Shown: piece by piece, positions 1,594-7,436 of the stretch
How the letters are laid out: the number at the start of each line of letters is the position of its first letter
Numbering within the stretch: position 1 is the stretch's first letter
Origin: Bacillales bacterium UBA5578
GTDB lineage: Bacteria; Bacillota_I; Bacilli_A; RF39; UBA660
Assembly: GCA_002425325.1 (NCBI GenBank)
Contig: DIMA01000018.1
Location: 8,259 to 72,258, forward strand
Direction of reading: 5' to 3'
DNA: 64,000 bases
The notes under the pieces: model-generated
Seen by the model: only the letters and a program-made list of their open reading frames with translations
What the model was told of the DNA's origin: nothing
The model's database searches: none
Position numbers and translations under genes: made by a program

Positions 1594-1626
1594 AAAAGAT
1601 ATTGTTTCCAATATCTTTTTTTTTAC
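1594..1626. terminator. Bidirectional rho-independent terminator between convergent genes.
   Basis: aaaaaagatattg-tttcc-aatatcttttttttt: 9-bp perfect stem flanked by an A-run and a T-run. Confidence 0.65.
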
Positions 1627-1744
1627 AATATGGTGCGAGTAAGAAAGTTATTTCAAACTTTTTTCGCTAAAGTAAGTAATCAATACAATAATTGTATCAA
1701 TTTCCTAATATAATTATAAACTAATCTGTTAAATAATCAAATAC

Positions 1745-2977
1745 TTATTTACCAGTTTGCTTACTTTTTTCTAATTTTCTTTGTAATCTTAATTGCTTTA
1801 CTTCCTCATCTTTTACCTTTTTTTGTTCTTCTGATAACTCATCCTGATTTATTCGACTAGATAAAGCATTAACTAATCTTTGATGAAGTTCATCTTCTTC
1901 AGGTGTATAAAAAGTGGCAGCATTATTATTTTGTGTCATTATAAGTTCTTGGATTGTTATTGTTGGAAGTTTTTCATATTTACTTGCTCTTGAACCATAT
2001 CCAATATAGCAAACCAAATTTTTAGATCCCCCTGCCTTAATATATTCATTCATAAATAATCTAAGACCTGGATCTGTTCTATCAACACCATAAGCCATTG
2101 GAATATCAATATTTCTACCAAATTCTTTTGCAAATATGAAAGCTCTACGAGGTCCAATTCTATTTCCACCGCGTTCGATAATTCTATACATTACACAATT
2201 AAGCATCTCATCTTTTTGATAAACCCAATTGTCATAATCTTTAATTGCTTTTTCAAATTCATTATCTTCTGGTAATTTTACACCTTTTTCTTTTAACATT
2301 TTAACTATTTCTTTTATATTTTTGTCTTCTAAATCTTCATTAGATATACCAGGTATTACACAATCCATATATTCAGACATTTCAACAAAGCCATTGCGAG
2401 TTAAGTGTAAATGAGCACTACCATGACCACGATTCCAATAAACAATATCTTGATATTTAGGTCTTGAAAATACATATCTTTCACTCCATGGAAGTGAATT
2501 AATAAATGCTTTGGTATTGTAAAATTCATCCCAGTCTAAATCTTTAATCTCTGAATCTTCGTCTAATATATCATTTGTATATTGATTATTTGCAAACATA
2601 ACTCCATTTATATCAATTTGTTCTTGTGATGAACCAGGCATTATTCTATTTATCTCGTAATCTGGATATCTTAATTCATACCAAACTGCCATTTTTTCAA
2701 TAAAATTTCTCATATCAATAGGAATTGAATATTCTCCTATATCAGTATAATGACCTTTAACCATATTTTCAGTAAACCAATCGATAAATTCATCTACTTT
2801 ATCGTCTAATACAATAGGACCAATTTTAGTGTCTCTACATTCTTCTTGTTTTTTTGTTGTAACATCGCAAATCTTATCTAAAGCATTATACATCATATAA
2901 TTACCAAATGTTTCACTCGATTCTTTTTTCTCAGTTATTCCTTTTCTTAATAATATTAATTTGTCTTTAATGCTCAT
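1745..2977 (-). CDS. Hypothetical 410-aa protein, co-oriented with and immediately downstream of the Mob relaxase. Likely cargo of the mobilizable element.
   Basis: Long ORF with a K/E-rich C-terminal tail. I recognise no catalytic motifs. Confidence 0.4.
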   Translation of the reverse strand: MSIKDKLILLRKGITEKKESSETFGNYMMYNALDKICDVTTKKQEECRDTKIGPIVLDDKVDEFIDWFTENMVKGHYTDIGEYSIPIDMRNFIEKMAVWYELRYPDYEINRIMPGSSQEQIDINGVMFANNQYTNDILDEDSEIKDLDWDEFYNTKAFINSLPWSERYVFSRPKYQDIVYWNRGHGSAHLHLTRNGFVEMSEYMDCVIPGISNEDLEDKNIKEIVKMLKEKGVKLPEDNEFEKAIKDYDNWVYQKDEMLNCVMYRIIERGGNRIGPRRAFIFAKEFGRNIDIPMAYGVDRTDPGLRLFMNEYIKAGGSKNLVCYIGYGSRASKYEKLPTITIQELIMTQNNNAATFYTPEEDELHQRLVNALSSRINQDELSEEQKKVKDEEVKQLRLQRKLEKSKQTGK

Positions 2978-3018
2978 AAAATTTAAACCTCCCTTAATTT
3001 CTTAATATTTTAACATAT

Positions 3019-4362
3019 TTATCTTTCAAAGTCATCACTTTTGTCATTATTTTTATTATTTTGAATAATATCAATGTAATTATCATCAATAATTTCTTCT
3101 TCGTGTAATTCTTGTATGAAGTCATCATATTTATCATTAGAAAAGAATTTATCTTGTAAGAACTCTATAAACTTTTGCCATAACTCTTTGAAATAGTTTA
3201 ATGCTTCTTCAAGTTTAGATACTTTATCTTCTAGCTCATCAATTTCATCGTTTGCATTCTCCAACTCATATTGTAAATCTTCAATTTTATCATCACGAGT
3301 TTTAATTTTTCGTTGTAAGTTTTTAACTTCATTAGAATGATTTTTTAAATCTTCTTCATATTTTTCAAGTATAGTAGTTAAGTCATTAGTAGATTTTAGA
3401 TTAGAAGTTGCATCAGTTGTTTGTTTAATATAATCTTTAATTTCTTCGACTTCCTTATTTGAAATAGTGAAGTTATTTTTATTTAATTTGCTAGGTTTTA
3501 AATTATCTATAATTTCAGTAATTTGACTAGATTTATTTTGTAAATTGTCTGCTTTATCATTTAATTCATTAAGTCTTTTTTTATTTTTTTCTTGTTCCTT
3601 TTTTAATTCTCTATAATTAGTCATATTTTTAACATTTATATCTTGATTACGACCTTCTTCTTTTGTTTTAATGGTATAGTTTAAATGATAAATTCGATTG
3701 AATGAATTGATACAATACTCTCTCATTTTATCTTGAATATTTCTTAAACTATCTGTTGTAAATACATCTGATTTACCAACTTGTTTCTCCATACGATTTT
3801 TACTTCCTTCTTTAAAAGGAACACCAACAACATGTAAATGTGGACTAGATTCATCAAAATGAATAGTAGCATTTGCTATCTTAAAATTAGGTATAACATA
3901 TTCTAAATCTATTATTTGTTCTTTATAAACTTCAATCATTTTCTTTTTAAATTTATCATCTTGTTCAGTCCAAAAATCCATATCTCCAAGTTCAATAATG
4001 ATTTCACAAGCAAGATCTCTTTTGTTATCATTTGAGATATGATTAAAATAATCTTCTATTTTTCTATCATTTCTTTTTTGCTTTTCATTATATTTAATTC
4101 TTGCTTCTTCAAATAATTCTAAATACAAATTTTTAGTATCTTCTACAATAGAAGAAGTACCTTTAATCGTACAAATTAATTCTTTTTCATTATCATATTT
4201 TCGTAAATTATGCTTATCAACTTTTGATAATTGTTGATGATTTTGTATTGCATTATTACTAAAAGAAGTTGAGTTATTATCACTATTTTTAGCAAATTGT
4301 CTTGCTCGTTTTGTTTTATTTTTATCATTACTTAAATGTAGTGAATAGCCAAGTTCTTTCAT
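3019..4362 (-). CDS. mob: Mob_Pre/MobV-family plasmid recombination/mobilization relaxase with a C-terminal coiled-coil.
   Basis: 'HFDESSPHLHVVGVP' matches the Mob_Pre HxDE...PHxH metal-binding motif. The K/E/N-rich heptad-like C-terminal half is typical of MobM-like proteins. Confidence 0.65.
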   Translation of the reverse strand: MKELGYSLHLSNDKNKTKRARQFAKNSDNNSTSFSNNAIQNHQQLSKVDKHNLRKYDNEKELICTIKGTSSIVEDTKNLYLELFEEARIKYNEKQKRNDRKIEDYFNHISNDNKRDLACEIIIELGDMDFWTEQDDKFKKKMIEVYKEQIIDLEYVIPNFKIANATIHFDESSPHLHVVGVPFKEGSKNRMEKQVGKSDVFTTDSLRNIQDKMREYCINSFNRIYHLNYTIKTKEEGRNQDINVKNMTNYRELKKEQEKNKKRLNELNDKADNLQNKSSQITEIIDNLKPSKLNKNNFTISNKEVEEIKDYIKQTTDATSNLKSTNDLTTILEKYEEDLKNHSNEVKNLQRKIKTRDDKIEDLQYELENANDEIDELEDKVSKLEEALNYFKELWQKFIEFLQDKFFSNDKYDDFIQELHEEEIIDDNYIDIIQNNKNNDKSDDFER

Positions 4363-6749: not shown

Positions 6750-6964
6750 AAAAGAGGCGACAAAGACACTAGGTTTTATGTCTTTGCACCTCTAAAATTC
6801 CAGTATGATAAATTATATTTGTTTTATATTAACCCCACAAAAACATAAAACTTCCTTTTATTGCTTTCTTATTATAGATACTTTTATTTTAAAGTCAAGA
6901 CATAATCCCCAATTTTTACCTATTTAAAGGCAATTTTAGAAGAAGTTAGTACATTTATATATAT

Positions 6965-7240
6965 TTAGTTTATTTGTTTTATATAGGTCTCTAAATCTGA
7001 CAATTTAATGCTTTTAGATAAATTTTCAATAAATATTTCATTGGAATAATTAAATGCTAGAAATGTAATACCCTTAATAATTATTCTATGAGGTTCAATG
7101 TAGTTTAAATTTGTCTTATTAATTTTTCTAATATTACCATTAATAATAGTTGGAGTAGTATTACAAAAACTACATATAAATTCTATTTTTTTCTTTAATT
7201 CGTTATCAATTTCTAATTTTTCCTTTGTAATATTTACCAT
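6965..7240 (-). CDS. Hypothetical small protein (91 aa).
   Basis: ORF only. No RBS was checked in detail and no motifs were seen. Confidence 0.25.
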   Translation of the reverse strand: MVNITKEKLEIDNELKKKIEFICSFCNTTPTIINGNIRKINKTNLNYIEPHRIIIKGITFLAFNYSNEIFIENLSKSIKLSDLETYIKQIN

Positions 7241-7349
7241 TTAAACCTGTCCTTTCTTTCTTAAACACTAAAAAAGTACCAACTTCTTTTTGAAATTGAT
7301 ACTTATATATTTAAAACCTAAACTATAAAAGTTCGGACAGATTGCTTAC

Positions 7350-7436
7350 TGGTGCCCATGAAGGGACTTGAACCCTTACGATATCACTATCATTGGATTT
7401 TGAGTCCAACGCGTCTACCAATTCCACCACATGGGC
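7350..7436 (-). tRNA. tRNA-Leu(CAA), class II with a long variable arm and an encoded CCA.
   Basis: Reverse complement is GCCCATGTGGTGGAATTGGTAGACGCGTTGGACTCAAAATCCAATG...GGTTCAAGTCCCTTCATGGGCACCA. Anticodon loop CTCAAAA. T-loop GGTTCAAGTCC. Confidence 0.85.

Follow-up and report, generated by a model that had tools for sequence, protein, structure and literature searches.

The 64,000-nt stretch of Bacillales bacterium UBA5578 whose first lines are given above, hereafter called the window, contains a tRNA-Leu(CAA) gene with a block of four co-oriented open reading frames (ORFs) behind its 3′ end. All coordinates refer to the window, and the gene strand of the block is the minus strand. In the direction of transcription, the ORFs encode a small protein of 91 amino acids (aa; orf91), a large serine recombinase, a relaxase of the MobV/Mob_Pre family, and a protein of 410 aa. 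The initial annotation had proposed that this block is an integrative mobilizable element (IME). Its description of the four genes, among them a hypothetical protein and a small ORF, was accurate, and so was that of the terminator hairpin at 1594–1626 and of the tRNA 3′ end at 7350. The features are compiled in Table 1.

Table 1. Positions of the features in and around the element and the basis of their assignment
Feature	Position	Strand	Basis
tRNA-Leu(CAA)	7350..7436	-	ARAGORN; Rfam tRNA 59 bits; identical in L019, L023
Direct repeat copy 1, GCACCA	7350..7355	-	junction alignments and 6-bp flank overlap in L019
Element left end, P′ arm of attP, GTAAGCAATCTGTCCGAACTTTTATAG	7323..7349	-	identical in all copies; served as search probe
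Terminator-like hairpin and T-run inside the element	7274..7304	-	consensus scan; 45–75 nt past the tRNA; conserved in L055 and other copies
orf91, 91 aa, conserved core gene	6965..7240	-	homologue search
Promoter-like TTGACT-16-TATAAT (6898–6871), then hairpin and T-run (6787–6760), recombinase leader	6760..6898	-	consensus scan
Large serine recombinase, 622 aa from ATG (MNEEKK start)	4851..6719	-	Pfam, PHROG, and PDB matches
Candidate origin of transfer (oriT)	4423..4507	-	conserved across diverged elements; 60–145 nt upstream of the relaxase gene
MobV/Mob_Pre relaxase, 447 aa; relaxase domain and coiled-coil C-terminal half	3019..4362	-	Pfam and MobM alignment
410-aa protein, variable cargo position	1745..2977	-	ORF call
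Element right end, P arm of attP, AAAAGTTTGAAATAACTTTCTTACTC	1637..1662	-	conserved in every copy with the right end captured
Direct repeat copy 2, GCACCA	1631..1636	-	sequence and junction comparison
Right (B′) half of attB: TATTG, then bidirectional A/T-rich hairpin	1594..1630		sequence and L014 empty site

The empty site and the limits of the element

An unoccupied site was sought via the gene for a 166-aa protein on the far side of the block (1093–1593), which was looked up in public assemblies. On three contigs (L014, L019, and L023), all from strains of the same species as the window, this gene was located directly next to tRNA-Leu(CAA), followed by yfhO. L019 and L023 were 100% identical to the window from 1 to 1636 and from 7350 onward, and the two matches overlapped by 6 bp, TGGTGC (GCACCA on the gene strand). 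L014 showed the same empty arrangement at 98% identity. The hexamer forms a direct repeat at both ends of the element, which comprises 1637–7355 and has a length of 5,719 bp when one repeat copy is counted; the placement 1631–7349 is equivalent. The comparison with the empty site thus replaces the limits of 1594 and 7350 that had been assumed at first. The hexamer had been noticed before, at about position 1637, but it had been set aside as too short for a direct repeat. Because the flanks of the empty site overlap by exactly these 6 bp, it is the true junction repeat and the crossover region, and its correct position is 1631–1636.

Copy 1 of the repeat covers the final two bases of the acceptor stem, the discriminator base A, and the CCA of tRNA-Leu(CAA). 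The 3′ end of the tRNA gene, ...GGGCACCA, represents the left (B) half of the chromosomal attachment site attB, and it is intact in attL, the left junction of the inserted element. In the empty site, 5 nt separate the end of the tRNA gene from the hairpin, which is common to both convergent genes; the sequence of the empty attB is CATGGGCACCATATTGTAAAAA. The attachment site of the element, attP, was reconstructed as ...AAAAGTTTGAAATAACTTTCTTACTC-GCACCA-GTAAGCAATCTGTCCGAACTTTT..., and the sequence of the joint is CTTACTCGCACCAGTAAGCAATC. The insertion moves the tRNA terminator 5.7 kb away, and the hairpin at 7274–7304 may, judging from its sequence, be its replacement.

Target sites and a model of their recognition

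The same module, with the order orf91, recombinase, oriT-like hairpin, Mob_Pre relaxase, and variable cargo, was seen at at least 38 distinct junctions in uncultured gut Bacilli. Among GTDB species representatives, a 27-mer of the left end occurred at 23 loci, three of them in one metagenome-assembled genome, and a 23-mer was found at 8 further loci in metagenome contigs. Contigs with two recombinase homologues had the same module in unrelated settings. Three copies of 7.17 kb (L010, L011, and L012) were 99.9% identical and had three different flanks, and the 5.7-kb type adjoined tRNA-Thr(CGT) in L002.

In every copy, read in gene orientation, the left flank ended with CACCA and was followed by GTAAGCAATCTGTCCGAAC..., and at the right junction ...AACTTTCTTACTCGCACCA was followed by the flank. 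CACCA was the end of all 36 unique left flanks and of two that were found later. At 24 of the 38 distinct left junctions, it was the exact CCA end of a tRNA or transfer-messenger RNA (tmRNA) gene (tDNA). Six tRNA species or tmRNA served as targets, i.e., tRNA-Thr(GGT) and tRNA-Thr(CGT) with 8 distinct junctions each, tRNA-Leu(GAG), tRNA-Phe(GAA), and tmRNA with 2 each, and tRNA-Leu(CAA) and tRNA-Arg(CCG) with 1 each. The base before CACCA (position -6) varied between G, C, and A with the tDNA, and it thus follows attB in attL. The base after CCA (+1) was always the G of the element in attL and depended on the locus in attR, the right junction, where it follows attB. As both bases follow attB, strand exchange was assigned to within CACCA (C72, discriminator A73, and CCA). 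The junction sequences indicate that the RNA gene is regenerated whole after insertion. The dyad geometry of attP favors a crossover at the dinucleotide CA with which CACCA begins, the mapping itself being limited to CACCA. The pentamer alone cannot account for the choice of the site, because the window contains CACCA 152 times (GCACCA 23 times), and only the single tRNA end is occupied.

The remaining 14 junctions had no adjacent tDNA. Most of them end like the right end of the element itself, with ...AAAGTTNNN... at -28/-29 and then GCACCA. In L027, L050, and L024, a tRNA gene was found 1.5–5.6 kb farther upstream. In L050, the region between tRNA-Thr(CGT) and the element harbors an 88-aa ORF, a recombinase with 45% identity along the entire protein, a Mob_Pre relaxase with 27% identity, and a DUF3644/restriction-endonuclease-like gene. 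In L049, another element, with a recombinase of 62% and a relaxase of 59% identity, directly follows tRNA-Leu(GAG). These sub-families with 62%- and 45%-identical recombinases have the same gene order and the same junction. The left ends of the related elements consist of GCACCA, about 13 nt, and T(C/T)(G/T)AAC TTTT, and such left ends form the right flanks of the present family in L002, L011, L032, L042, and L048. By their sequences, IMEs with serine recombinases pile up in tandem behind tDNAs.

Three additional observations were made at individual loci. In L002:15130–19000, directly behind the 5.7-kb element, a related left end is followed by an oriT-like hairpin (15210), a 90-aa homologue of orf91 (65% aa identity), a DUF218 gene, and a 751-aa ORF, and neither a recombinase nor a relaxase was called in this unit. 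It may be a non-autonomous relative that is mobilizable in trans. In L011 (9320–9360), and probably also in L010 (9335–9360), insertions were located beside isolated tRNA 3′ fragments (T-arm, acceptor, and CCA, or the last ~19 nt only) and not beside whole genes. These fragments may be remnants of other tDNA-targeting islands, and if so, targeting would require no more than the last ~20–30 bp of a tDNA. In L032 and L053, the element is present only behind the last gene of a tight tRNA cluster (Ser-Met-Asp-Phe), which suggests that the right half of attB needs non-tRNA sequence, or else that split tRNA operons are selected against.

The recombinase is identical to the database protein P0001. 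It matched the Pfam domains Resolvase (PF00239, 117 bits) and Recombinase (PF07508, 59 bits), both above the cut-offs, and its catalytic serine is part of YIRVSTEDQ. The zinc ribbon that had been ascribed to it is less clear. The motif CxxC...CxxC (CPKC...CNNC) is present and is followed by a charged helical stretch, but the profile Zn_ribbon_recom (PF13408) scored 21.3 bits and thus remained below its cut-off of 25.3. The best PHROG match was an integrase family (4e-111). In the PDB, the N-terminal domain matched the TP901-1 integrase (1.6e-21), whereas the match to the N-terminal domain of TnpX was marginal (E 1e-4). Pfam searches detected neither a Phage_integrase (tyrosine recombinase) domain nor DUF4368 in the element. 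Among the matches listed, more than 100 homologues had identities of 85–95%, and their hosts are uncultured gut Bacilli, e.g., Candidatus Onthousia and Candidatus Faecimonas. A search of 1.84 billion cluster representatives yielded only 190 relatives (E <= 0.001) of the C-terminal domain of 243 residues, which is specific for the clade. Most of these relatives are short fragments, and no plasmid-borne homologue of the C-terminal half was found. The recombinase clade is narrow, yet abundant.

The reconstructed attP has an imperfect dyad symmetry; its left arm reads AAAAGTTTGAAATAACTTTCTTAC, and its right arm, in reverse complement, reads AAAAGTTCGGACAGATTGCTTAC. The arms AAAAGTTTGAAA...CTTAC and AAAAGTTCGGAC...CTTAC stand on either side of GCACCA, and the latter is the reverse complement of the left-end arm. 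In all sub-families, the P-type arms contain AAGTTYGR 28–29 nt from the CCA end, and the tDNA arms contain the T-loop sequence RGTTCRA at 24 nt, so that from attP to attB the motif is shifted by 4–5 bp toward the center. This agrees with A118-type integrases, in which the motif of the zinc-ribbon domain is shifted by 5 bp between attP and attB (PMC3783163). Because the same motif is found 4–5 bp farther out in both attP arms, we propose a model in which the zinc-ribbon domain reads the T-loop and the catalytic core reads C72-A73-CCA.

The sequence comparisons show that the recombinase joined attP to an attB composed of the tRNA-Leu(CAA) 3′ end and the adjoining terminator, by an exchange inside CACCA. 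The tRNA gene has stayed whole, and a 6-bp repeat has been left around the element. The recombinase clade uses the CCA ends of many tRNA and tmRNA genes and also inserts beside resident related elements, resulting in tandem arrays. The invariant T-loop RGTTCRA, which has a fixed distance from the CCA, is probably read as the motif of the zinc-ribbon domain. The junction sequences provide good support for integration at CACCA by the recombinase, while the recognition of the T-loop is a step that we infer. A more far-reaching hypothesis is that a clade of serine recombinases with a private C-terminal domain has evolved the use of the tRNA 3′ module (T-loop GTTCRA plus C72-A73-CCA) as an attB half-site. 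It would be the first serine lineage that specifies tDNAs, convergent with tyrosine integrases, and its attB would be asymmetric with one strong, structure-defined half-site. In our judgment, this hypothesis is evenly poised between right and wrong. If it is true, any CCA-encoding tDNA with such an ending, tmRNA included, would be a harmless landing site.

Proposed mobilization, spread, and alternative explanations

The assignment of the relaxase to MobV/Mob_Pre on the basis of an HxDE..PHxH motif was confirmed. The protein scored 58.5 bits (1e-15) with Pfam Mob_Pre, for which the cut-off is 25.5, and it contains HFDESSPHLH as well as an N-terminal KHNLR. It could be aligned to MobM of pMV158 (PDB 4LVI; 1.7e-7, 34 bits) over residues 96–217, with HFDESSPHLH against HLDESTPHMH (HxDExxPHxH). 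The score with the NCBIfam MobV equivalog NF041497 was 30.2 bits and thus under the cut-off of 100, and therefore the relaxase is a distant MobV member and not an equivalog. The closest homologues on plasmids were at most 40% identical, and most of these plasmids are predicted to be mobilizable.

The region between recombinase and relaxase (4363–4850), which had been described as non-coding and structured, does carry conserved inverted repeats. The most prominent block forms the hairpin CTAAGGTT-GCCTA-AACCTTAG. Its inverted repeat is composed of CCCCCATATTTTGA (4485–4472) and TCAAAATATATAGGGGG (4453–4437) with the layout CCCCC-ATATTTTGA...TCAAAATAT-AT-AGGGGG, and it is followed by the conserved tail TTAGAGATTTTGAC (4436–4423). 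The block is kept even in lineages with relaxases of 59% and 54% identity, and its stem shows compensatory changes (ATATT/AATAT versus AGATT/AATCT, GAGTTT/AAACTC, and ATATCTTGT/ACAAGATAT). An Rfam scan of window positions 1–9000 yielded only the tRNA, and the intergenic structure thus corresponds to no known RNA. In pMV158, the oriT is located upstream of mobM, with a hairpin 8 nt before the nick (PMC5863519). By analogy, the hairpin block is likely the oriT of the element.

A domain scan of the four ORFs revealed no genes of a type IV secretion system (T4SS) in the element. The initial annotation had pointed to an adjacent T4SS island as a potential helper. The window does contain T4SS genes, for a VirB4-like ATPase (31921–33708) and a T4SS coupling protein (T4CP; 38812–41010), and it also encodes a Tad-type ATPase (18211–19536) and an M23/CHAP hydrolase, but the VirB4 and T4CP genes are 24–34 kb from the element, beyond yfhO, scpB, and scpA. 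It is plausible that this cluster would act as a helper for the element. The cluster extends over about 30 kb (11300–41010) between scpA and rmuC and encodes a SAF-domain protein, a Tad/T2SSE-type ATPase, the VirB4-like ATPase, the M23/CHAP hydrolase, a SpoIID/C39-like protein, and the T4SS coupling protein. The empty-site strain L014 has the first genes of this cluster as well.

IMEs have their own integration enzyme, a relaxase and/or an oriT, and no mating-pore genes. The element at tRNA-Leu(CAA) has its own recombinase, is bordered by repeats for which an empty site exists, and contains a relaxase and an oriT-like site without T4SS genes; on these sequence features, it is classified as an IME. 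We consider it highly probable that 1637–7355 is an intact IME of 5,719 bp that was inserted by a large serine recombinase at the CCA end of a tDNA and that would be mobilized via its MobV relaxase and candidate oriT with the aid of a foreign T4SS. In such a cycle, the element would be excised to a circle, the relaxase would nick the candidate oriT upstream of its own gene, and the DNA would leave the cell via the T4SS of another element, possibly encoded by the VirB4/T4CP cluster at ~31.9–41 kb. Excision and conjugative mobilization by the T4SS of the window are, like T-loop recognition, steps that we infer. The element is probably still active.

Several results weigh against this interpretation or parts of it. 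No relaxase or integrase was recognized among 20 ORFs scanned in the T4SS cluster, and there is no functional link between the cluster and the element. The right half of attB had no common motif in the two clear chromosomal cases (the window and L012), and L010 had no GTTC motif on the left, so that the T-loop reading is a proposal only. The motif shift was 4 bp in this sub-family instead of 5. Many copies are decayed, and the recombinase is in pieces in L027, L048, and L050, so that the activity of any single copy is uncertain. A nucleotide search with the whole element had no match in PLSDB plasmids or INPHARED phages. The exact 31-mer of the attP joint had 0 matches in metagenome contigs, and neither an element-sized circular contig nor an excised circle was seen. 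Assemblies seldom retain attP joints, and therefore the lack of this joint is weak evidence. Two element-sized contigs with close recombinase homologues (L055 and L057) were considered as circles and rejected; they showed no permutation or terminal overlap and represent ordinary tRNA-Thr insertions or contigs broken at an element end. A visual search for a promoter across the junction of the circular form, comparable to that of Tn4451, gave no convincing candidate.

Three alternative explanations were weighed. The block might be an integrated small mobilizable plasmid, with the 410-aa protein as an unrecognized replication initiator (Rep) and a recombinase that occasionally parks the plasmid at tRNA ends. 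Relaxases of the Mob_Pre type typically occur on small plasmids, 346 of the 376 plasmid matches are on plasmids predicted to be mobilizable, the element sizes of 3.6–7.2 kb are plasmid-like, and the sequence AHLHL in a predicted beta-strand of the 410-aa family recalls an HUH motif. However, the first His of AHLHL is not conserved, and the protein matched neither a Rep family nor a fold. In addition, the 7.16-kb variant does without the 410-aa gene, and neither a free circular contig nor a nucleotide match in PLSDB was obtained, which makes a plasmid origin improbable. Less probable still, with only a slight chance of being correct, is a phage satellite or prophage remnant with a phage-type serine integrase and transfer by transduction in place of conjugation. 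The best PHROG match of the recombinase is a phage integrase family, and the L010 copy is located beside phage lysis genes. Genes for capsid, terminase, packaging, or a repressor are, however, missing from the element, the left-end probe had 0 matches in 2.9 million viral contigs, the element had no match in a phage collection, and the conserved relaxase and oriT-like site favor conjugative mobilization.

The initial annotation had also allowed for a fixed chromosomal block, with the recombinase as an invertase or resolvase of a local switch. One source annotates a close homologue as "DNA invertase Pin-like", and matches of the Resolvase domain to invertases exist. This explanation is already refuted, and its residual probability is negligible. 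Conspecific strains have the empty site, the same termini are found at many unrelated loci, and the ends are in direct and not in inverted orientation. The empty site and the near-identical copies at unrelated loci thus identify the block as an integrating element and, together with the relaxase and the oriT-like hairpin, bear out its interpretation as an IME.

The small protein orf91 has 3,608 homologues, and the best 120 are at least 92% identical. Synonymous changes exceed non-synonymous ones, which indicates purifying selection, and orf91 is more conserved than the recombinase. Related elements have homologues with 39–69% identity ahead of their recombinase genes. No family match was found in Pfam, PHROGs, NCBIfam, or PADLOC, and an AlphaFold2 (AF2) model with a mean confidence (pLDDT) of 60 was too poor for a structure search. 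The protein could be a regulator or directionality factor. Between orf91 and the recombinase gene, the promoter-like site is strong and nearly matches the consensus, and the hairpin and T-run behind it in the leader may, from their sequence, be an attenuator of recombinase expression.

The 410-aa protein has 771 unnamed homologues and likewise no match in Pfam, PHROGs, NCBIfam, or PADLOC. Its AF2 model (pLDDT 71) had no Foldseek match in PDB or BFVD, and a reading of AHLHL as part of an HUH-type Rep was dropped, because the first His is outside the conserved columns. Other copies of the element have different cargo. L002 encodes a 460-aa relative at this position, and in L010–L013 (L010:13639–16389) the 410-aa gene is replaced by genes for a 157-aa protein, an aminoglycoside phosphotransferase/kinase (APH) family protein, a 114-aa protein, and a UDG-family protein. 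A related tandem element (L050:4596–5528) carries DUF3644 and an EC042_2821 restriction-endonuclease-like protein, perhaps as defence-type cargo. In short copies and in some others, the recombinase or relaxase gene is fragmented, and decay after insertion seems to be common.

Relation to known elements

In function, the element comes closest to Tn4451/Tn4453 of Clostridium perfringens and C. difficile, which has a similar size of about 6 kb, resides in Bacillota, encodes one large serine recombinase (TnpX) and a MobV-type relaxase (TnpZ) with an upstream origin, lacks a T4SS, and has very short end repeats (PMC5704250). TnpX exchanges strands at a 2-bp sequence and has a low target specificity (PMC5704250). 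In contrast, at least 5 bp (CACCA) were common to each of at least 38 junctions, 24 of which are tDNA 3′ ends. The TndX-like multi-targeting clade commonly has DUF4368 (PMC10083194), whereas the present recombinase had no DUF4368 match and a similarity to TnpX of only E 1e-4; the gene order and the 91-aa gene are also different. The element is thus outside the Tn4451/Tn4453 family.

The streptococcal IMEs with serine integrases (Ser_1 to Ser_4) are likewise chromosomal, encode one serine integrase and often a relaxase of the MobV class, and are known for tandem accretion at one site (PMC5357655). Their integrases insert into protein genes (rumA, traG, maff2, and snf2) and disrupt them (PMC5357655), whereas the present clade inserts behind an RNA gene that is left intact. 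The relaxase and its upstream region resemble MobM and oriT of pMV158, the MOBV1 prototype, in the HxDExxPHxH and N-terminal His motifs and in a hairpin that is followed, immediately before the relaxase gene, by a conserved stretch; however, only a short local alignment with MobM was obtained, and the oriT sequences are unrelated.

With regard to the target, the element resembles islands with tyrosine integrases (Islander type), which also use the 3′ part of tDNAs including tmRNA, preserve the gene, and form arrays at one tDNA. The enzyme families are unrelated, and the attP of such islands includes part of a tDNA, with a long repeat as the result, whereas only GCACCA is shared here. The multi-targeting large serine recombinases of Durrant et al. 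(2022) are similar in that a cluster of ~90% identity uses many loci with a short motif (PMC10083194). In that work, which makes no mention of tRNA, the targets are protein-coding and the motifs are short or AT-rich cores (PMC10083194), whereas the loci found here belong to one structural class of sites.

The family is abundant in poorly known gut Bacilli, forms tandem arrays behind tRNA genes, and includes at least one variant with a gene of the aminoglycoside phosphotransferase family. Programs for island detection that pair tDNAs only with tyrosine integrases, or that require a long tDNA repeat, would overlook such elements. A serine integrase that needs only a ubiquitous conserved site of ~30 bp could become a landing-site tool for bacteria whose tRNA genes include the CCA. 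The literature searched, which was incomplete, contained no account of CCA-end targeting by a serine recombinase, so that a prior description elsewhere is possible. Reviews assign the ends of tRNA genes to tyrosine integrases, and protein genes or near-random sites to serine integrases (PMC4383910, PMC5704250, PMC5357655). The family described here crosses this line.

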